Source: a virus
Lineage: Duplodnaviria; Caudoviricetes
Strand: one strand, 5' to 3'
Virus record (IMG/VR): IMGVR_UViG_3300014826_000005
Coordinates: 8,167 to 72,166 of that record
Length of the DNA: 64,000 bases
Within the stretch, counting starts at the first letter, position 1, and each line of letters starts with the position of its first letter. Shown one piece after another: positions 11,592-44,702 of this stretch. The notes beneath the pieces were generated by a model. That model was not told where the DNA came from. It did no database searches and worked only from the letters and a program-made list of their open reading frames with translations. Made by a program: the position numbers and the translations under genes.

Positions 11592-11639
11592 CCATTATGG
11601 CTATTTCTTATTTATCCGTATTTTGTATTGATATAATTA

Positions 11640-11649
11640 TATATTATCT
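11640..11649 (+). promoter_or_regulatory. Early-type promoter motif TATATTATCT
   Basis: Recurrent motif. Confidence 0.6.
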
Positions 11650-11684
11650 TCGTGTAAAGAGTAATAAATAAGATACAAACATCG

Positions 11685-11747
11685 TATTTAGAGTTGAGTA
11701 GGTTCGCATGAGAACCCTAATGATATATTCATTAGCTCCTCTAAATA
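11685..11747 (+). promoter_or_regulatory. Candidate three-way-junction RNA in the 5' leader
   Basis: TATTTAGAG/CTCTAAATA closing stem, GAGT/GCTC, and hairpins GGTTC/GAACC and TAATGA/TCATTA. Confidence 0.45.
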
Positions 11748-11784
11748 AGATAGTATTTTAAGTTATTACTCAAGGAGGATAAAT

Positions 11785-12084
11785 ATGAGTAAATCTAAGA
11801 TTAAAAATGTTGGTAAGGCTTCATGGATTCTTGTAAGAGAAAGCTGCAAACTCGTGGCTGTTACTGGTCAAGCGGTAGCAGCTGGTTTAGCAGCCATGTG
11901 GGTCGTCGACTCGACCTACGTAGGGCTGCAAGAAGCAGCCAATGTTAGAGGAAAGAAGGCTTGCGGCGTCAAGCCTAAATATTCTACAGAAGGGCATCTG
12001 TGGAATAAACGACAAGTTGGAGTGGTGGAGACACCATTCCAATCATTTAAACATGAGCTACCAGCTCAGAAAGGAGGAAAGTAA
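11785..12084 (+). CDS. Hypothetical protein with a central hydrophobic/Ala-rich helix
   Basis: 99 aa, AAGGAGG RBS. Confidence 0.75.
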   Translation: MSKSKIKNVGKASWILVRESCKLVAVTGQAVAAGLAAMWVVDSTYVGLQEAANVRGKKACGVKPKYSTEGHLWNKRQVGVVETPFQSFKHELPAQKGGK

Positions 12085-19851: not shown

Positions 19852-20592
19852 TTATAATTTTAAGAGTTGTTCAACTGGTGAATAGGTTTCTTCTTGCTTT
19901 TCTCTTGTTCGATTCAGTGATGTTGTCACCATCGAATCAAAGTCTTCAAATGTTAAAGCTGTAAAAGTAGATGAGTATTGGCAGATTTCTCGTATATTAA
20001 TCATACGATAATCAAATTGTGATGTATGGGGATTTTTTCCAATAACTTGGGCAAACTTTTTCGTTGGGTCATTCTTATATCGATAAATACCAGAAAGAAT
20101 GAGTTCTTCAATAACAGAAGTAACACCTAATCCAACACCATTTAAGTCTTGATTTTTCTCCCATATACGTAAAGATTTTTCATAAGGAATATTATCAGGT
20201 AACTTACCTTTTAGTATGAATTGCAAATAAGATTCACAATTACTACTATCTTCAATAGTACCATTATTCATAATCTTATCCCCTTTACGATAATGCAATA
20301 TCATACAATCGATAGGTTCCTCATATCCTTCTATTCTAACTTTACTTACATCAGTATCACCAATGAATAATTCTATCCATGTAGGAACATTAAAGACTTT
20401 CGTTGTCGTAATATCCCCTTTTTCATTTTTAAATCCCACATTAAAGATTCCTATTGTACGAATAATAGATCCTTTTTCTTCAGCAAATCCTCCTGGAGAC
20501 TTAAAGTAATCCATAGGTAGATAGAAATCAGCTTGAGGAGCATTTAAATAGATATATTTATTATCCATTTTAAAATACATATTTTCTTCCAT
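19852..20592 (-). CDS. Hypothetical protein
   Basis: 246 aa, GAGGTG RBS. Confidence 0.8.
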   Translation of the reverse strand: MEENMYFKMDNKYIYLNAPQADFYLPMDYFKSPGGFAEEKGSIIRTIGIFNVGFKNEKGDITTTKVFNVPTWIELFIGDTDVSKVRIEGYEEPIDCMILHYRKGDKIMNNGTIEDSSNCESYLQFILKGKLPDNIPYEKSLRIWEKNQDLNGVGLGVTSVIEELILSGIYRYKNDPTKKFAQVIGKNPHTSQFDYRMINIREICQYSSTFTALTFEDFDSMVTTSLNRTREKQEETYSPVEQLLKL

Positions 20593-20643
20593 ATTATCAC
20601 CTCACTTTAATAAAATGATTTAACTAATTGTCTTAATGAATAG

Positions 20644-20931
20644 AAAAAGAAGAGATAACCTCTTACAGTTATCTCTTCTCTGGCGAACAACACACTGGAT
20701 GAGTGTGCTTAATTATCTCTTATGTGAAAGGTGGAAATTAACTATCGAATATATCAAAGAATCCATATAAGGTATTTCTGGCAATTTTATCATCAAATAT
20801 CAAGATACAATATGATTTATATTAGGAGTTACAATGTTGCTGTATGAACGGAGGAATGTCATAAATCCATCCACAGTCTTTACTTGTTGCATCAAAGGTA
20901 GGAGACCACCTTAATACCATCACATAAGATT
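20644..20931 (-). ncRNA. Candidate structured non-coding RNA (about 290 nt)
   Basis: Own late promoter and terminator; long-range stem 20906-20929 pairing with 20718-20734; internal hairpins; no RBS-led ORF on this strand. Confidence 0.6.
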
Positions 20932-20942
20932 ATAATTTTGTT
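20931..20942 (-). promoter_or_regulatory. Late-type promoter AACA-N6-TA
   Basis: AACAaaattaTA. Confidence 0.55.
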
Positions 20943-20953
20943 AATAAAATTAT

Positions 20954-21109
20954 TTATTTTTTACTAATATCAACATGGAACCAATCTTGATTATCTTTAT
21001 TAGCTAGTACACCTTTAACTTGCTTGTGATTAGCATCAATTAATTCTTCAATACGGTCCATATCATCAAGTGGTTTTTCGTCATTAATAGGTATAGAATC
21101 TTTATTCAT
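20954..21109 (-). CDS. Small protein (51 aa, MNKDSIPINDEKPLDDMDRIEELIDAN...), not in the ORF track
   Basis: TAATG coupling with the upstream gene. Confidence 0.6.
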   Translation of the reverse strand: MNKDSIPINDEKPLDDMDRIEELIDANHKQVKGVLANKDNQDWFHVDISKK

Positions 21110-22731
21110 TACGCATCATCCTTTTCATCGTTAGGTGTCGATTCAGAATTTTCATCAGATTGCTGAACCGGACTTGATGTTAATTTATCACGATGTTCTT
21201 CAGCTACTGTTGATTGAAGATTCTTCATTGATTCATTTTGAGCTTTCAATGAATCTCCTAATTCTTTAATAGCATCATCTTTTGATGCGTCTTCTTTAAT
21301 TTCATTAGGATCTTCATCTGTAGGTTCAATTTGTTCTTCTTGAGAAGATTCTTCTTTCTTATTAGCTTCTTCTTCATCACGAATATCCGTTTGAATCAAT
21401 TCTTTCACTTTTTCATTATAACGAGTAGTCAGTTCTTCAGAACTTAATGATGCATCATATAAATCTTGTAACCCTAAATCCTTATATTTCTTCTCTAATA
21501 ACATTTTGCGATTAGATTCTTTATTTTCTTCCATTTCTTTACGTTTTTCATGATTCTTAAATGTAGAATTATTTTCTTTAAATAAATCAGAATAATTAAT
21601 AAAGTAATGGTCAATTTCTTCAATAATAGAAATAAATTCTTGTTCAAGTTCATCAGATGTAAATTTATGATAAACTAAGTTTGCTAATCCACCTGTTAAT
21701 GATTTAATAAACATGCTATCACGTTTATTATAAGGATCACCGTAGGCAACCATTCTCATATAAATAAATAAGAATAAGTTGTTAAATGGTCCATATTCTT
21801 CAGGTAAGAAATTTTCTTCAATATTAAAGAAGTATGTGTAAATAGATGGATTGAAACCAAAACGATGAATTTTATTCTTATATTTATTAACGATATAAGA
21901 ACCTTTCACATTACCATTGAATCCCTCAATGATATTTTTAATTTCATCATCTCCATAACGTAAGAATCTATCTTTAACAAATGAGAAATCTAATGATTTC
22001 TTCATAGTATCAAGCATTTCTTCAATTTCACGCTTCTTAATATTATCGGTTTCCTTTTGTACAGCTTCCTCTAAAGTTGCAATACGTTTCTTTTTTAATT
22101 CGATAATTTTATCAGAATTTAAATAGTTGTAATAATCTCTAAAGACATCATTAGCTTCTTCTGTCAATTCTTCTGTTTCTTGTTTTGATTTATAAAGAGA
22201 AACAGATAAATTCTTAGTATCAAGTAATGCGTCACGAAGTTTTTCTTCATCATCTATCACATTTTCTATAATAATTTCATCTGTCATATATGATGATGCA
22301 AAGGCTTTCATATCTTCATAACTCATTGTCTCAATATCGGATTGTCTAAATTGAAGAATATTAAACAACATCTCTTTATCAAATCCGTAGCAGATTTTAA
22401 TCGTATATTCATAGAATTTACGAAGTGTATCATATTGCTCTTGAGCCATTTTTAAATAATCTTTAATGAGTTTATAATCTGTAGGATTAATACCACCATT
22501 ATTATTAGTACTTTCTTCTTTTTGTTCATCTTTCTCAACTATAGAATCATCAACTTCTTTATCCTTAGGAGATTCTTCTGTTACTTCTGTTGCTGATTCT
22601 TCAGTTGTTTTTAATTCTGTATTTTCTTCCATTATTATAGTCCTCCTTAATAAAATACTAATATTATTAAAATGTGAAAAAAATAATAAATAATAAGTCA
22701 TACCGTATGATAGGATATTTGAGGTATACAT
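21109..22731 (-). CDS. Acidic coiled-coil hypothetical protein
   Basis: Likely start MEENTE after AGGAGG (about 22632). Confidence 0.8.
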   Translation of the reverse strand: MYTSNILSYGMTYYLLFFSHFNNISILLRRTIIMEENTELKTTEESATEVTEESPKDKEVDDSIVEKDEQKEESTNNNGGINPTDYKLIKDYLKMAQEQYDTLRKFYEYTIKICYGFDKEMLFNILQFRQSDIETMSYEDMKAFASSYMTDEIIIENVIDDEEKLRDALLDTKNLSVSLYKSKQETEELTEEANDVFRDYYNYLNSDKIIELKKKRIATLEEAVQKETDNIKKREIEEMLDTMKKSLDFSFVKDRFLRYGDDEIKNIIEGFNGNVKGSYIVNKYKNKIHRFGFNPSIYTYFFNIEENFLPEEYGPFNNLFLFIYMRMVAYGDPYNKRDSMFIKSLTGGLANLVYHKFTSDELEQEFISIIEEIDHYFINYSDLFKENNSTFKNHEKRKEMEENKESNRKMLLEKKYKDLGLQDLYDASLSSEELTTRYNEKVKELIQTDIRDEEEANKKEESSQEEQIEPTDEDPNEIKEDASKDDAIKELGDSLKAQNESMKNLQSTVAEEHRDKLTSSPVQQSDENSESTPNDEKDDA

Positions 22732-22945: not shown

Positions 22946-24255
22946 TTAAAAATGATTTAATTCATCAAAGAAATCTAGTGGGATATCACCACCATCATCA
23001 TATGAATCAACAGCAACATCGGTTGAATTATCATAAATAGAATTTTGAATATTTCCAGATTTATAAAGACGATATGTTTGTTCTTGAGACTTAGCAATAG
23101 CATCTTTCATCATTTGGTCCCAATTCATTTCTTTTTCTGTAAGAATTTCTTTCTCTCTTACAGTTTTAGCATCATCTATTATTTTTTTATCGACAAGATT
23201 AGGATCGATTTCTTCAGGATGTTTTAATCCTGAATTATTCAACTCTTCATCTTGTGCACCTTTATAAATACCAAATAATTCTAAGTTATTACCATGATAA
23301 TAAACATAAAGACCGATAAGGTAACTCATAACGGAGTCATCATGGAAACCTGTACCAGCTTCAATACGACCAGCTTTTGTTCTTACTAATCGTGTGATAT
23401 CTCTTGTAATATTATGGGTAACAAATTTATCTTTATATTCAGAGACATGACGTGACAATATTGCCATCATATCATCTCTTGATTTACCAGCTGTATAAAC
23501 ACCATAGTATTTCTTCATAACAGACTGCTTTTTAAGCATACTTTCTGTTACTTCAGCACTACGCATCGTTTCTTCTACTAAATCTCTATTTTTATCATAG
23601 TAAAGACGATTACGAATTTTGGAATGAAGTAAATGGTCAATAATACCATCACCCATGCTATTACGTTCAATAACAACAACTGCACGAGGAATAACTGTTG
23701 ATATTAATTCAATAATCAATTTCTCATACATCGTTTCACCAATGAATGAAGATTCAAATTCTGCAACAGGCTTTACTGTATAAGGATTTAATATGGTGAT
23801 AGCGTTGTTATCTCCTGATGTACCTGTAGAACAGTCGACAGATACAATATAAGGAATTTTTTTCTTTAAAGGTTCATAAATATCAAATTTAAAATATTCT
23901 AATAACCATAATTCATCTATAGGTTTCTTTTCAACTTCAACAAGATATTCCATATCTTCTTGAGGGAATGGAGATAAAGATGAACCATGCAATCTTTGTA
24001 ATAAAATTTCTCTTCGTGTTGTCAATGGGTCTTGGATCTTAGCAGAAATATTTCTTAACCAAGCCTCTGTTTTCCCTATTTGCTTATAAGAGTATTCTAT
24101 ATAGAAAATTTTATTACAATCTTTCCCTGCTGCTTCAATATATTTTTGAATTTGCTCATCGGTCATATCATAGACACGTTCTGTCCATTTAACCGTTTTA
24201 TCAAGAATCTGTTGACCTTCCAACCCTTCTTGGGTATCAAGGTCTCCCGGTGTGC
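22946..24255 (-). CDS. terL: Terminase large subunit, exon 2 (end of ATPase plus RNase H-like nuclease)
   Basis: (C)TPGDLDT..., VSVDCSTG, HDDSVM; in frame after removing the intron. Confidence 0.85.
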
Positions 24256-24743
24256 CACCAGTATTTTTGTAGACTATATCACCATCTTTAATATACTATT
24301 ACCATATATAAAAGAGCCTCCCATTTCAGTTTATTGTATATATGAAATATACTCACCTACATTTCGTCCTATCATTGGACCTACTCGCTTATCAAGCCAC
24401 CTAGTATGATTACTATTTTGATATTTCTATCTGCATGACTGTCTAGCTTTCCCTAGTCGTTGAGCTTTCATGTTAATGTGATATTAATAAAAATTCGTTC
24501 ATTAACATGCTTAGTTGCGGATTGTCTCTATACATAACCTTTTTACTATACCTTTGGAGTTACCCATTGCCACTAGATGTATTACTACTCTAGCTTAGTA
24601 GTTATGAACTATCGAGTGCATATTTCTATGCATTCAAATAATTGATTATCTTTATCTTCATTATTTGAAACGTTCCCGCAGTTAAAGAGGTTTTATTTAC
24701 ATTAGTCACCTAATGTTTACGCACAATCCTTAATCTCGATTCT
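24256..24743 (-). ncRNA. Group I intron in terL (488 nt, no ORF)
   Basis: P AACTGCGGGAA (24673-83), Q AATCCGCAAC (24514-23), R TCAACGACTA (24454-63), S GATATAGTCT (24271-80); exon 1 ends in U paired with G of the IGS; terminal G; P10 GCACA/TGTGC. Confidence 0.9.
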
Positions 24744-25566
24744 ACGTAAAAATACGCGCATGCATGGCGTGATTTCGCTTCGCATTTAAAGCGGCCGTTT
24801 CATAAGTTGATACTGAGTTGGAAATAATTGTTTTAATATGCTTTGTAAATTCTGGTTCATCAAAATGAAGAATAGGAGCCGTCAAACCTCTGGCAAGAGA
24901 TAATGCTTGGTCATAAGATGTCGCTTTATTCTTAATGACAATAGAGTTTCCATTAATAGGGTTCCCTAATTCAGTCGCATTTTCTTTTGCTTTAATAACT
25001 TTACCATCTTCATTAACAATGAATCGTGATTGCATATATTTAGGCAATAAGTCAATTTGGTCTCTCATAGACTTAAGGTTTGCCTTAGCATTAGGACCAT
25101 CTTTGTTGACAAAGATAAACTTTGAGTTTGTTGTACCAAAAAGATAAGCCCATGTTTGAAGTGCTAAAGCCGAAACGGTTTTACCTTGCTGACGAGGTAA
25201 ACATAACCATGAGTCCAGACCTTTAATGATACAATAAGCTTGAGCAATATTTCCTCGATTTGCTCTATATCTTACGAAGTTCCCACCTTGGTCTGGTATA
25301 TGACATATTTCTCGTAAATAATACCAAGGATTACGAGCACATTCTATCATTACACGAGAGACTTGATCTCTTGATAAATTACAAACACCATCTTCATCTA
25401 CAGAATATGGATCAATATTAATAAGTGTCCAATCATATATTAACAGTGGAAAATAATAATTTTTAACGCCTAAGACTTTTAAATCTCTAGAGAGTTGAAT
25501 AAAAGATGTGTTAGAAGTTCCTAGGTCATAAAAATTATTTTTGATATTTGCAATTCTTCCAGCCAT
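24744..25566 (-). CDS. terL: Terminase large subunit, exon 1 (ATPase)
   Basis: Walker A PRQQGKT, Walker B HFDE; spliced product 710 aa reading ARIFT-C-TPGDL. Confidence 0.88.
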
Positions 25567-25653
25567 TATATTTTTTCACCTCACTTTATAATCATTAAAT
25601 AAAGGTAGAAAAAATAAAGTAATATAAGTAATTTACTTATATTACTTTATCTA

Positions 25654-27425: not shown

Positions 27426-28058
27426 TTATTTTTTCCAAAGATTCTTATTCAATTCTAAAACAGAGAAATCATTTGAGTTGTAAAGTAATGATTTATCAAT
27501 ATACTTATTGATTTGATCTCTATATTCATCAGATATAGCGTCTTTATATTTTTTGATAAATTCATTTAAATTACCATAAGCTTGATGATAGTTAATAAAG
27601 ATTTCTCCATCATGTATTTCTTGATGAACTGTAGTACTTACCATAACGACTTGAACACGATTTCTCATATGTTCTTGTAACACTACGTCAGCAACTCTAA
27701 ATGTAGAAATTTTCCATTTCTTTAATAAGAAATATTCTAGCACAATTGAACAAATATCGAATAAATTAAAAATAGGTCCGTGATGCATTTCGATATCAGC
27801 ATCTTCATCACTTATATCTTTCAATACTTGACAATGATTCAATTTAACTTCCTTTTTTAAATAAGAAATGTATTTGTTGTATCTATCATTGTGACGAACA
27901 GCATATTCAATTCCTTTTACAAAGGCTACATAACTTTCATAATTTGAGAAATACTCCAAATCTTTATACATTAATATCTTATAAAAAGACCCACTTGCGT
28001 CGACTATTGGTGTGAGGTCACTTTTATCATAAAGTATATCTGGTAACGATCTAGCCAT
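27426..28058 (-). CDS. Hypothetical protein with an HNH-like motif
   Basis: CQV...IEMHHGP...HQEIH; late promoter; divergent from the baseplate-like operon. Confidence 0.45.
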   Translation of the reverse strand: MARSLPDILYDKSDLTPIVDASGSFYKILMYKDLEYFSNYESYVAFVKGIEYAVRHNDRYNKYISYLKKEVKLNHCQVLKDISDEDADIEMHHGPIFNLFDICSIVLEYFLLKKWKISTFRVADVVLQEHMRNRVQVVMVSTTVHQEIHDGEIFINYHQAYGNLNEFIKKYKDAISDEYRDQINKYIDKSLLYNSNDFSVLELNKNLWKK

Positions 28059-28092
28059 TCATAATCCACCTCACTTTAAGCAATCTTTGTCT

Positions 28093-28104: not shown

Positions 28105-28168
28105 TTTTCAATATATTAATAATTTTATCAAGTGGACAATTGTTTAAGATTATAAAAAGAAAAGGAAG

Positions 28169-42972: not shown

Positions 42973-43028
42973 AGCTATTTACTTATATAATAAGTAGAAT
43001 AAACCTAAAGAAAGTGAGGTGCACATAA

Positions 43029-44702
43029 ATGGCTATAGTAGATGTAGAAAAAATCATTAATGGTACGCCTATTAAAAGATTTTTTAATGCTTACGAAGCA
43101 ATGAAAGAAAACTATAACGAAGAAACAGCTAAAGTTTTTTATAATTTTCTTTCATCTCTACCTACTTCTATGGTTTTAGAAAATTCACGTTATATTTTCT
43201 CTGAACCAATGTATGGGTATGAATTCTATAGAAGATTGATTTTTGATCCATGCTTTGTGAATTTTACATCATTGGAAATTGAACATGAGAAAGTGTTGAA
43301 TTTTCTAAATGAAAATGGTTCAAAGATGGGTGAACATCAAAAAGAACTTTATGTCACATTAGAAGAAAAAATGAATCAATTGATTCAGAAAACAAAAAAT
43401 ATTCGAGCTATAGCAGAATATTTTAATACGAAGTATGACCATTTAGAGGCTAAATTATCTGATAGTGATAATCCCCAAAATGTTATCCTAGAGACAAATG
43501 ACCCAATAGTGAATATTTTGTATGCTCCATTTATCGGTTTAAGTGAAGAACTTTATAATTCATTATTAGACCAATCTGGTATTAGTGATGAATTAAAGAA
43601 GCTTCCTAACTCACTAGAAAAGTGGAGAAATTATGTTGATACTTGTATTGCTGCTAAATGCTTATATCAGGATGAACTTTATCAAGACAGAGTATCTTCT
43701 GAAAATAGAAAATATCGTGCTCTTTATGATTATTTTTCTAGTCAGGATGTTATGAAATCTCTTGATGATTTTATCACTGTGAAAGAAAAAACTCCATTCA
43801 CTTATGAATCAGCAGAGCTAGCTATTAATAATCTTTTTATTATGACAGAAATGTCTGACCTTTATAAAGATGAAGATGCTCAAGAAAAAAAGATGAATGA
43901 GAGTGCAAGAGAAATTGTAGAAGCATCTACAATGAATTTTCTTACAGCTTGTTATCAATCATATGAATCAACTGAAGATCTTGCAAAAGGATTTGATTTA
44001 TTAGATTCTGAAATCGATCATCCCGTTTCTGTGGAAGAGGGTATGAATTATATGATTACCCACTATCCCTTTCTTGGTGAATTCACAGAAGCAGTAGAAG
44101 AAGATAGTGATGAAGAAATTGATAAATTAGAAAAAGACGCTGTAGGTAAACCCAACGACCAAAACACTGTCACAAAACCTAAAGAAAAAAACTTAGCAAC
44201 AAAAATTCAGCACAGTGCTATGGATAAAGAAGCTAAGCAGATGCAGAAATCAGCTATTCGTAAACAGAAAGCTCAAGAAATTCTTAATGCTGGTAAAGCT
44301 GTTATCCAACTTCCAATGAATGTTGTTAAGAGTATTGGTGATGTCGTCGGCAAGATTGGTAAAATGGACGATAAACGTCGTAAAGATTATATAAAAGAAC
44401 CTGGTTTTAGAAAAAAGATTTTTAGAAATTTAAAACTTGCTCTTCTTTATGGAACGGCTGCTCAAATTAAATTAGCATTAGTTCCTGTTACTATGGTGAT
44501 TCGTCATTTTAGTAAGGATAAAAATATTCGTATTCGTAATGAATTAGTACGTGAATTAAATACAGAAATTAAAATTACTGATTCGAAAATTGAAGATGCT
44601 AATAGTGCTGATGATAAAAAAGAAAAATATCGTCTTATGAGAATAAGAGATGAACTTGAAGCTGAAATGCTTCGTGTTAAGACTAATAGTAAATATATTT
44701 AG
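43029..44702 (+). CDS. Probable prohead core/internal head protein
   Basis: 557 aa in the head operon; internal FTE-A site; basic C-terminal domain. Confidence 0.5.
   Translation: MAIVDVEKIINGTPIKRFFNAYEAMKENYNEETAKVFYNFLSSLPTSMVLENSRYIFSEPMYGYEFYRRLIFDPCFVNFTSLEIEHEKVLNFLNENGSKMGEHQKELYVTLEEKMNQLIQKTKNIRAIAEYFNTKYDHLEAKLSDSDNPQNVILETNDPIVNILYAPFIGLSEELYNSLLDQSGISDELKKLPNSLEKWRNYVDTCIAAKCLYQDELYQDRVSSENRKYRALYDYFSSQDVMKSLDDFITVKEKTPFTYESAELAINNLFIMTEMSDLYKDEDAQEKKMNESAREIVEASTMNFLTACYQSYESTEDLAKGFDLLDSEIDHPVSVEEGMNYMITHYPFLGEFTEAVEEDSDEEIDKLEKDAVGKPNDQNTVTKPKEKNLATKIQHSAMDKEAKQMQKSAIRKQKAQEILNAGKAVIQLPMNVVKSIGDVVGKIGKMDDKRRKDYIKEPGFRKKIFRNLKLALLYGTAAQIKLALVPVTMVIRHFSKDKNIRIRNELVRELNTEIKITDSKIEDANSADDKKEKYRLMRIRDELEAEMLRVKTNSKYI

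Follow-up and report, generated by a model that had tools for sequence, protein, structure and literature searches.

Late transcription in the jumbo phage AR9 starts at promoters of consensus AACA-(6N)-TA/G, of which the last base is the transcription start, and halts strongly at predicted terminators (PMC5312081). Some of the late AACA-N6-TA starts of AR9 have no gene behind them (PMC5312081, Table S3); these are labelled antisense, and their transcripts are not described as paired-end intergenic RNAs. The candidate unit that we describe here has the same promoter consensus, with a start predicted at the last base and a strong intrinsic terminator, and its promoter, like the orphan starts of AR9, has no gene of its own. 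At this locus AR9 shows no sequence similarity to our phage, and its gap is 94 nt long, with the terminator first and the promoter second.

The 6S RNA of phage lambda (the pR'-tR' leader) is an untranslated transcript of ~200-300 nt that runs from a late promoter to a strong terminator just before the structural genes. Our candidate shows the same succession of promoter, short untranslated transcript, and terminator ahead of structural genes. In lambda, however, read-through needs the Q antiterminator and no second promoter follows tR', whereas here a promoter-like site stands after the terminator and the polymerase is a different one; we know of no Q-like factor or binding site for this unit. 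Base-pairing small RNAs of Firmicutes with C-rich or anti-Shine-Dalgarno motifs (RsaE/RoxS, S. aureus RNAIII, and the Rsa RNAs) share with the candidate a promoter and a terminator of their own, together with several pyrimidine-rich motifs that are complementary to ribosome-binding sites and of which at least one is unpaired. Nevertheless, the motifs here are CUCCU, CCUCC, and CACCUU instead of UCCC or CCCC, and this RNA is longer, has paired ends, and matches no Rfam model; among the translation start regions analyzed, no target of it stood out. Bacterial 6S RNA and the phi29 packaging RNA resemble the candidate in size range and in the pairing of their 5' and 3' ends, but no covariance model of either matches, the interior of our candidate is predicted, with low confidence, to be multi-branched and not a rod with a central bubble, and there is no phi29-like packaging system here. 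Candidate non-coding RNAs of jumbo phages have also been reported from transcriptomes, in PA5oct (PMC7318152), 201phi2-1 (PMC11512511), and phiKZ (PMC8244752); they are likewise intergenic and phage-encoded, but they belong to unrelated Pseudomonas phages and come from RNA sequencing, whereas ours is a prediction from sequence.

A protein-free gap with a late promoter and a terminator

The window, which is the whole 64,000-nucleotide stretch of DNA that was analyzed, comes from an uncultured giant phage and includes, on the minus strand, a protein-free gap of 361 bases (20593-20953). The phage is AR9/PBS1-like, its virion protein being 27-31% identical, over the full length, to those of AR9, PBS1, and related Staphylococcus and Listeria jumbo phages. 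The gene downstream of the gap encodes this 246-aa virion structural protein (19852-20592, minus strand; PHROG 2926; 31% identity to the AR9/PBS1 virion protein), and upstream lies a 51-codon ORF (20954-21109, minus strand) with homologues in the closest relatives only. The gene order terminase, virion protein, sheath is common to AR9 and this phage. The terminase belongs to the large jumbo-phage type, and its gene, downstream of which the gap sits, is split by an ORF-free insert. The G+C content of the gap (33.6%) resembles that of this insert (34%), compared to 18-26% in the ordinary gaps of the window. The upstream operon comprises the terminase, a 514/540-aa protein, and the 51-aa ORF, and the region of the candidate RNA doubles as its 3' untranslated end. 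On the sequence evidence, we give about even odds to the proposal that the gap constitutes an independent late unit of transcription, from 20931 to ~20644 on the minus strand, whose product is a non-coding RNA of ~285 nt; the candidate RNA is probably real, lineage-specific, and late.

An earlier note on this DNA had read a minus-strand AACA-N6-TA promoter with its +1 at 20931, and we indeed find the exact AR9-type late motif there (AACAAAATTATA, 20931-20942, minus strand), with the A at 20931 as predicted start. In this window, 14 of the 48 copies of the AACA-N6-TA motif class lie 10-70 nt before a start codon, where 1.4 would be expected (P=3e-10), and only 0.1 copies would be expected by chance on the minus strand of the gap. 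The promoter ends in ATA, TTA being commoner in the window, and the motif is present in all nine sequence variants of the locus, with a single change that falls within the N6. At the other end, we observe a strong intrinsic terminator (20646-20681, minus strand) of 15 pairs followed by a U run to ~20641; all 14 counted stem pairs are invariant, and the loop of 7-8 nt differs between clades at most positions. After this terminator, 29 nt before the ATG of the virion gene, occurs a second promoter-like site (GACAATTAGTTA, GACA-N6-TA, 20621-20632, minus strand). A GACA-N6-TA is also found 3' of the terminator in the relatives L029-L031, at the normal distance from the ATG, and other NACA-N5-TTA sites precede the genes at 28135 and 8856 at the usual distance. 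The first promoter would be left without a gene of its own because this second site, past the terminator, appears to serve the virion gene.

Predicted fold

The first 25 bases of the RNA would pair with bases ~200 nt downstream, so that both ends are closed. This pairing, described in the earlier note together with its 7-nt bulge, consists of perfect inverted repeats of 10 and 7 nt. In DNA letters, TCTTATGTGA at 20920-20929 pairs with 20718-20727 over 10 nt. The 5' arm of this closing helix (UCUUAUGUGA, 20920-20929, minus strand) is invariant in the nine variants, and the 3' arm (UCACAUAAGA, 20718-20727, minus strand) starts with A instead of U in clade B, with the loss of one end pair. The pairing probability is ~0.98 both in the window and in L025, a relative from clade B. 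The bulge (UGGUAUU, 20913-20919, minus strand), on the 5' side between the two halves of the helix, varies among the variants in sequence and length (6-8 nt), and both flanking arms are fixed. The 5' arm of the second half is the Shine-Dalgarno-like AAGGUGG (20906-20912, minus strand), which forms a perfect 7-nt repeat with CCACCTT at 20728-20734. This segment is always paired in the ensemble (probability 0.96-0.98), its partner in the window being CCUACCUU close by (20895-20902), whereas in clade B it pairs with the distal CCACCUU. By our own estimate, a perfect 10-nt inverted repeat is not rare in 361 AT-rich bases, but the adjoining perfect 7-nt continuation is. The 10-bp arms are flanked by AATTAT and ATAATT, and the closing helix thus extends into the promoter.

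Within the closed region lie an internal hairpin (20840-20876, minus strand), an 11-nt anti-Shine-Dalgarno-like island (UAACUCCUAAU, 20821-20831, minus strand) that is invariant in the nine variants and has a mean unpaired probability of 0.83-0.88, and a block of invariant sequence (20728-20795, minus strand) that holds the 3' arm CCACCUU (20728-20734). Between the closing helix and the terminator stands a small hairpin, CACACU/AGUGUG (20691-20707, minus strand), whose stem is fixed, whose loop is variable, and whose extra basal pair is A-U or G-U among the variants. The earlier note had listed both hairpins, the internal one at the same position, and had placed the terminator at 20649-20678. 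The fold of the 288-nt RNA has a z-score of -3.5, to which the small hairpin and the terminator contribute most; taken alone, the 220-nt body is no better than shuffled sequence (z=-1.1 for the window, -0.6 for L025). The interior is predicted, with low confidence, to be multi-branched and weak.

Known RNA families give no match: in Rfam, the whole window lacks hits at gathering scores, and 20400-21200 has no relevant hit at E<=10; this holds in particular for the 6S, phi29 pRNA, riboswitch, T-box, and other leader models. A scan for tRNA and tmRNA found none, as the earlier note had anticipated from the lack of such signatures. The note had pictured an independent closed-end RNA, and an ORF-poor, paired-end, late minus-strand unit is what the analysis supports; the specific functions that it offered are not. 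For a 6S-like decoy of RNA polymerase there is no 6S match, and the body is not predicted to form a stable rod with a central bubble; as AR9-type polymerases read the template strand, a mimic for them might look different. For a packaging RNA there is no phi29 pRNA match and nothing that links the RNA to packaging.

Conservation and coding potential

The comparison set consists of nine sequence variants in two clades of close relatives (a further contig is identical to L025), and the transcription unit is retained in all nine. The gap is 86% identical between the clades, compared to 55% at the fourfold-degenerate sites and 72% at the third codon positions of the adjacent gene, and the differences concentrate in the terminator loop, the loop of the small hairpin, and the bulge. 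In the invariant block, 60 of 61 columns are identical between clades, with 60 consecutive bases identical in all nine variants; the stretch around UAACUCCUAAU has a between-clade identity of only 73%. In the internal hairpin, two pairs differ between clades by compensatory changes, U-A to A-U and G-C to U-A, and in L046 one G-C pair has turned into G-U. The G-U pairs fit the minus strand only, and together with the compensatory changes they indicate selection on a single-stranded minus-sense fold. This covariation amounts to one split between two clades, with two events in one hairpin, and the closing helix never varies. We also observe that the conserved tract extends beyond the gap, third positions being 93% identical over the first 90 nt of the virion gene; a shared recombination tract could therefore explain part of the conservation.

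Outside these close relatives the element is not seen. It is missing from relatives at 38-60% protein identity, including those with the same gene order, and an 801-base DNA search of the phage collection gave no match. Exact-word scans with the invariant block found it in none of the viral contigs and in none of 185,579 species genomes, and the element is therefore not visibly host-derived. The phage's own record contains no further copy besides the element itself. Translated searches (tblastx) and short-word blastn of the gap against the loci of relatives and the rest of the window gave chance-level matches only. A decayed gene was considered and rejected, since none of the proteins compared that relatives encode at this position showed similarity to the gap in any frame; the comparison covered the 136-aa protein of L002, those of 249-254 aa in L029-31, and the C-terminal halves of the proteins of 827-859 aa.

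No short ORF in the gap, judged by its sequence, behaves like a gene. The earlier note had stated that this strand has no ORF led by a ribosome-binding site, which is not strictly true: AAGGUGG, with an AUG after 13 nt, opens the 30-codon ORF1 (20892-20803, minus strand). ORF1 is not conserved, being frame-shifted between clades and prematurely stopped in L046. The same note had pointed to a 22-aa plus-strand ORF after an AGGAG; this ORF exists (20834-20914, plus strand) but has 26 codons and is lost in clade B. The third ORF, ORF2 (MIKLPEIPYMDSLIYSIVNFHLSHKR, 20793-20716, minus strand), is open in all nine variants and fills the invariant block, its last third lying within the closing helix. 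The small ORFs of the gap gave no match to PHROGs. Reassignment of stop codons is out, as TAA, TAG, and TGA each terminate long ORFs, and an extension of the 51-aa ORF by -1 frameshifting in its A-run was rejected by hand, the shifted frame ending after ~21 codons and not being kept in clade B.

Competing explanations and possible function

The gap might contain no trans-acting RNA at all, but belong to the upstream operon as its terminator module and long, structured 3' untranslated end, with a leftover, possibly still active copy of a promoter-in-terminator hairpin; the structures would stabilize the mRNA and insulate it from the tail operon. In relatives, indeed, the late promoter of the virion gene lies within the 5' arm of the upstream terminator hairpin, and the closing helix reaches into the promoter here too. 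The 3' arm of this helix repeats 9 nt of the terminator 5' arm (AAGAGATAA, inverted-repeat pair I6), suggesting a duplication; transcripts from upstream have to cross the region to reach its sole terminator; and the RNA body is thermodynamically unremarkable. In the L029 lineage, moreover, an unrelated ORF-less promoter-terminator unit occupies the same place, which points to an architectural and not a sequence-specific role. A mere spacer, however, would not retain the 66-nt invariant block or the exposed 11-nt island while loops change at most positions, nor does it agree with an exact promoter motif in nine of nine variants or with the 80-120 nt of ordinary late-gene gaps in the phage and its relatives, and we consider this explanation possible but rather unlikely. 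The succession of promoter, untranslated leader of ~285 nt, strong terminator, and structural genes, found in the same order in the L029 lineage, would also suit a cis-acting leader similar to lambda pR'-tR', in which most transcripts of a constitutive late promoter stop at the terminator and a phage factor or RNA switch permits read-through into the virion, sheath, and tube genes. The two possible partners of AAGGUGG look like a two-state element, and 5' untranslated regions in AR9 reach up to 491 nt (PMC5312081). Read-through is unnecessary, however, given that a promoter-like site stands between the terminator and the ATG, at the usual distance from the latter. By our own reading, no antiterminator segment complementary to the terminator 5' arm is kept in both clades: clade B does not retain the one partial match, UAUCUUG, and the only alternative pairing (I6) uses the 3' arm of the closing helix, so that the U run would still follow. 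No leader model in Rfam matches either, and we know of no antiterminator for AR9-type polymerases, which makes such a regulated leader unlikely.

That the gap encodes micropeptides, chiefly ORF2 or a short leader peptide from ORF1, is more doubtful still. ORF2 stays open across the variants, a 1-nt deletion near its end adding just one codon; ORF1 has the Shine-Dalgarno-like AAGGUGG 10-13 nt before its AUG, and its first 9-11 residues resemble each other in the two clades, where two synonymous changes occur. But ORF2 has no ribosome-binding site, unlike most genes of this phage, which have a strong one, its four changes are all nonsynonymous, and 20 consecutive codons lack any synonymous change although the third positions of the neighboring gene are 72% identical. 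Its overlap with the closing helix and the missing PHROG match also argue against a gene, as do, in ORF1, the paired state of AAGGUGG and a frameshift and truncation caused by the very changes that keep the internal hairpin paired. A site conserved as double-stranded DNA, whether pac, replication origin, or operator, would fit a position downstream of the split terminase gene, the invariant block, and a 22-bp near-palindrome that overlaps the promoter (pair I5), but AT-rich palindromes are common by chance, inverted-repeat analysis and a search of the phage's own genome found no direct repeats or iterons, and the element is missing in relatives with the same gene order. The compensatory changes and G-U pairs point instead to a single-stranded minus-sense fold, and we regard a DNA-level site as very improbable.

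For the stand-alone late transcription unit, we propose that the phage's own non-virion RNA polymerase would start at the AACA-N6-TA promoter and stop at the hairpin-plus-U-run terminator, as the two motifs suggest. The closed ends may shield the RNA from 5' and 3' exonucleases in Firmicute hosts, around an interior with one hairpin kept by compensatory changes and an invariant core of 66 nt. The unit probably goes back to a promoter-in-terminator hairpin, like that of more distant relatives at this spot, which was duplicated and expanded.

As to function, our best guess, which is speculative, is a base-pairing regulator that would mask ribosome-binding sites late in infection. Nine hits of anti-Shine-Dalgarno-like pentamers occur in 286 nt, compared to 1.6 expected, a count reached by only 0.19% of equal-size windows, and we count five such motifs in the RNA, of which at least one, UAACUCCUAAU, is predicted to be exposed and is invariant. 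Ribosome-binding sites shared among mRNAs read AAAGUGAGGUG or AGGAG. Against the window's 61 translation start regions, the best duplex reaches -31.5 kcal/mol, compared to -28.6 +/- 2.1 for shuffled RNA, and no target stood out among these 61 regions. A broader hypothesis, that this RNA belongs to a previously undescribed class of late RNAs with paired ends in AR9-like jumbo phages, whose anti-Shine-Dalgarno copies would act as ribosome-binding-site masks or decoys of the 16S 3' end and reprogram translation at the end of infection, seems unlikely to us. In a bolder variant, a CA-N6-UGUU segment (20697-20686) could mimic the deoxyuridine template-strand promoter, uracil being a natural base of RNA, and titrate the phage non-virion polymerase.

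Giant phages with their own RNA polymerases are models of virus-controlled gene expression and, to our knowledge, almost nothing is known of their regulatory RNAs. Practical value is limited at present, as the phage is uncultured and the element occurs in one narrow lineage. A possibly more general by-product is that related phages place a late promoter within the 5' arm of the terminator hairpin that precedes it, a design in which upstream transcripts would be stopped while new ones start within the hairpin and pass. If the proposal is true, the phage would have a late RNA with a promoter of its own, both ends closed, and exposed motifs complementary to ribosome-binding sites, and such an RNA would offer a testable candidate for the control of translation by the phage.

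An AR9-like phage and its late transcription signals

An ORF-poor gap of 361 bp (20593-20953, minus strand) separates a 51-codon ORF from the gene for a virion structural protein of 246 aa (19852-20592, minus strand, identified by PHROG membership), which lies directly downstream of the candidate RNA. The source record, a 72-kb IMG/VR entry, is about 30% complete according to CheckV, and the virion protein is also found on 63 public contigs, the longest of 232 kb. This protein aligns over its full length, at 27-31% identity, with those of AR9/PBS1 (Bacillus) and related Staphylococcus and Listeria jumbo phages. AR9 also has the same gene order as this phage, in which a split large terminase is followed by one or two unknown genes and then by the genes for the virion protein, the tail sheath, and a tube-like protein. 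Judged from this match and gene order, the phage is an uncultured member of the AR9-like jumbo phages, and the earlier note was therefore justified in borrowing the late promoter consensus of AR9.

Two parts make up the large terminase (22946-25566, minus strand), an ATPase portion at 24742-25566 and a nuclease portion at 22946-24223, with a 518-bp ORF-free insert of 34% G+C between them, in which Rfam at gathering scores detected no intron; the AR9 terminase annotation consists of five joined pieces. The protein encoded upstream of the gap (514/540 aa, 21109-22731, minus strand) matches no Pfam or PHROG family; of the 827-859-aa proteins that more distant relatives have at this position, it aligns with the first ~390 residues only.

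In AR9, 94 of the 118 non-early transcription starts carry AACA-(6N)-TA/G, whose last base is the start site, and strong transcription stops occur at predicted terminators (PMC5312081). In our window (1-64000), AACA-N6-TA is rarer than chance (48 copies versus 87 +/- 10 in shuffles). Nevertheless, 14 copies are found on the correct strand 10-70 nt ahead of a start codon, compared to an expectation of 1.4 (P=3e-10), so the motif works as a signal in this phage. This combination of depletion and enrichment is consistent with selection against stray late promoters.

The minus-strand promoter proposed in the earlier note is an exact match to the motif (AACAAAATTATA, 20942-20931), expected only 0.1 times by chance on this strand of the gap. 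It is retained in 9/9 variants with one change, inside the N6 spacer; its ATA ending recurs in the sheath-gene promoter (19820-19809), TTA being commoner. An intrinsic terminator of 15 pairs and a U run is predicted at 20681-20646 (minus strand), followed by a second promoter-like site, GACAATTAGTTA (20632-20621, minus strand), 29 nt before the ATG of the virion gene. Genes at 28135 and 8856 are preceded by NACA-N5-TTA variants at the usual distance, an identical GACA-N6-TA pattern follows the terminator in the L029-L031 lineage of relatives, and the order terminator, promoter, gene is found in other relatives and in AR9 itself. All of these observations suggest that the virion gene has its own putative promoter. 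Given this site after the terminator, the first promoter is left without a gene, being followed instead by ~285 nt and a terminator.

Other motifs occur nearby. A 22-bp near-palindrome, ATAATTTTATT/AACAAAATTAT (20932-20953, inverted-repeat pair I5), overlaps the promoter and begins immediately after the 51-codon ORF's stop; its symmetry is lower in clade B, one of the two closest groups of relatives. On the plus strand, AACAACACACTG (20686-20697), located in the small hairpin described below, matches AACA-N6-TG, and an antisense transcript running across the RNA could begin there; in the RNA, this segment appears as CA-N6-UGUU, which is the promoter in its template-strand form. Elsewhere, a long gap of high G+C (11592-11941, plus strand, 36%) contains the motif AACATCGTATTT (11678-11689) 253 nt before the next long ORF, and ORFs of 99 and 103 codons overlap there; either a second RNA unit or a small gene missed in gene calling may be present.

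Conservation, folding, and coding potential of the gap

Searches of viral and metagenome collections with the virion protein returned relatives at 38-60% identity and two closer groups at 93-100%; only these closest groups retain the 51-codon ORF and the long gap. Clade A comprises the window, L040, L043, and L052/53 (gap of 361-362 bp), and clade B comprises L025-28, L044-51, and L055 (355-356 bp), together providing nine distinct gap sequences. The two clades are 86% identical across the gap (36 mismatches plus 14 gap columns, out of 365), compared to 72% for third codon positions and 55% for fourfold-degenerate sites of the adjacent virion gene.

The differences are unevenly distributed. 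The terminator loop is changed at most positions whereas the 14 counted stem pairs are invariant, and the small hairpin CACACU/AGUGUG (20691-20707) has a variable loop and a fixed stem. Block 20728-20795 has a single variable position, and the 11-nt island UAACUCCUAAU (20831-20821) is invariant within a stretch only 73% identical. Conservation of third positions is also high (93% identity between clades) over the virion gene's first 90 nt, so the conserved tract could partly be a shared recombination tract, but the saturated loops argue against a recent one. The G+C content of the gap (33.6%) is close to that of the terminase insert, versus 18-26% in ordinary gaps of the window.

The paired ends described in the earlier note, forming a closing helix, correspond to two perfect inverted repeats on the minus strand, one of 10 nt (20920-20929 with 20718-20727) and one of 7 nt (20906-20912 with 20728-20734), with a 7-nt bulge between them on the 5' side; the internal hairpin (20840-20876, minus strand), the small hairpin, and the terminator are likewise all where it placed them. 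The bulge varies in sequence and length (6-8 nt) while both arms are constant. The internal hairpin is supported alike by RNAalifold and by a direct pair count: two pairs are altered on both sides between clades (U-A to A-U and G-C to U-A), and in L046 a G-C becomes G-U. At the foot of the small hairpin, an A-U pair in one clade corresponds to G-U in the other; as G-U would be an A-C mismatch on the plus strand, the selected fold is minus-sense, as are the flanking genes and the proposed RNA. The covariation check suggested by the earlier note thus favors the internal hairpin, through only two independent compensatory events, all on the single clade A/B split. The closing helix is invariant, except for one end pair lost in clade B, so covariation is uninformative here; the helix is predicted to pair with a probability of 0.98 in either clade.

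AAGGUGG is always predicted to be paired: in the window with CCUACCUU, which is local, and in clade B with the distal CCACCUU. One of these two partners is left free in each clade. The fold z-score is -3.5 for the 288-nt RNA, compared to -1.1 (window) and -0.6 (clade B relative L025) for the 220-nt body without terminator (-0.7 for its plus strand). The thermodynamic signal is thus weak once the terminator is removed, and the picture is of a closed loop in which one hairpin is well supported and the conserved interior mostly open, rather than of an intricately folded molecule.

Regarding coding potential, the earlier note saw no minus-strand ORF led by a ribosome-binding site, but ORF1 follows the Shine-Dalgarno-like AAGGUGG, with its AUG 13 nt (clade A) or 10 nt (clade B) further on. 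Its product would be 30 residues long in clade A but 19 in clade B; a 1-nt indel limits the shared part to the first 9-11 residues, and in L046 the frame stops after 15. These changes all leave the RNA hairpin paired. The plus-strand ORF behind AGGAG, which the earlier note gave as 22 aa, has 26 codons and loses its start in clade B. A micropeptide gene is a minor rival, in the form of ORF2 (20793-20716, minus strand, 26-27 codons), which is open in all variants. Nevertheless, ORF2 has no ribosome-binding site, while most genes of the phage have a strong one, its changes are four nonsynonymous and zero synonymous, and its last third lies within the closing helix. The gap ORFs have zero PHROG matches, and the gap shows no similarity to proteins encoded by relatives at the same position.

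Relatives and proposed origin of the unit

In the L029-31 lineage (59% protein identity), a 249-254-aa gene replaces the 51-codon ORF, and the gap of 191-197 bp (L029:2310-2500, L031:1007-1203) contains an unrelated ORF-less unit, consisting of AACATTAATTTA, ~125 nt, and a terminator, with GACA-N6-TA next, ahead of the virion gene. In the remaining relatives the gap is only 80-120 bp. In many of them, the terminator hairpin of the upstream operon, in the gap directly preceding the gene for the virion protein, carries an AACA-N6-TA promoter within its 5' arm (L002:2935-2990, L003:2928-2975, L006:2922-2970, L013, and L038:1918-1970); L003, for example, has AACATTGGTATAAGGCAG...CTGCCTTATACCA, then a T-rich run. 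New transcripts, lacking half of the stem, would pass such a hairpin, and upstream transcripts would stop. To our knowledge, this compact design has not been described.

The closing helix extends back into the promoter (AATTAT..ATAATT on either side of the 10-bp arms), and its 3' arm duplicates nine bases of the terminator's 5' arm (inverted-repeat pair I6). From these two features, we infer that the unit arose by duplication of a promoter-in-terminator hairpin, followed by enlargement of the loop.

Possible roles of the unit

The serious rival to a discrete RNA is a structured 3' end of the upstream operon carrying a relic promoter. The region is transcribed anyway by read-through from upstream, and an architectural role is suggested by the L029-31 lineage, which has an unrelated ORF-less unit in this position. 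A terminated leader, similar to lambda pR'-tR', and a site acting at the DNA level are further rivals. We consider the chances about evenly balanced that a discrete, functional late RNA is made.

If so, the RNA could act by base pairing, masking ribosome-binding sites, which is our best functional guess, no more. In 286 nt, nine pentamers taken from the complement of AAGGAGGUG are present versus 1.6 expected, a count reached by only 0.19% of same-size windows in the 64-kb sequence. These anti-Shine-Dalgarno-like pentamers form five clusters, four of which are kept in clade B, and the invariant UAACUCCUAAU is predicted to be unpaired (probability 0.83-0.88). A target search among the window's 61 translation start regions performed no better than shuffled controls. 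An extended ribosome-binding site, AAAGTGAGGTG, is common to four late genes: those of the virion protein (20598-20608) and the terminase N-terminal part (25570-25590), gene 27426-28058 (28062-28080), and gene 43029-44702 (43010-43028). This site is complementary to CCACCUUUCAC, the 3' arm of the closing helix, except for a 2-nt bulge.

The interpretation in the earlier note is partly supported: an independent late transcription unit finds support, whereas 6S-like and packaging RNAs find none, given the lack of an Rfam match and the weak body fold. Rfam gave no match in the whole window at gathering scores and nothing relevant around the site at E<=10, and a tRNA/tmRNA scan found no genes.

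The promoter and terminator of the unit match AR9-type late transcription units, and late starts without a gene are listed for AR9 itself (Table S3 in PMC5312081). For other jumbo phages, transcriptome-derived candidate non-coding RNAs are reported (PMC7318152; PMC11512511; PMC8244752). On sequence grounds, the unit is a candidate for a phage-encoded late small RNA, restricted to one narrow lineage.
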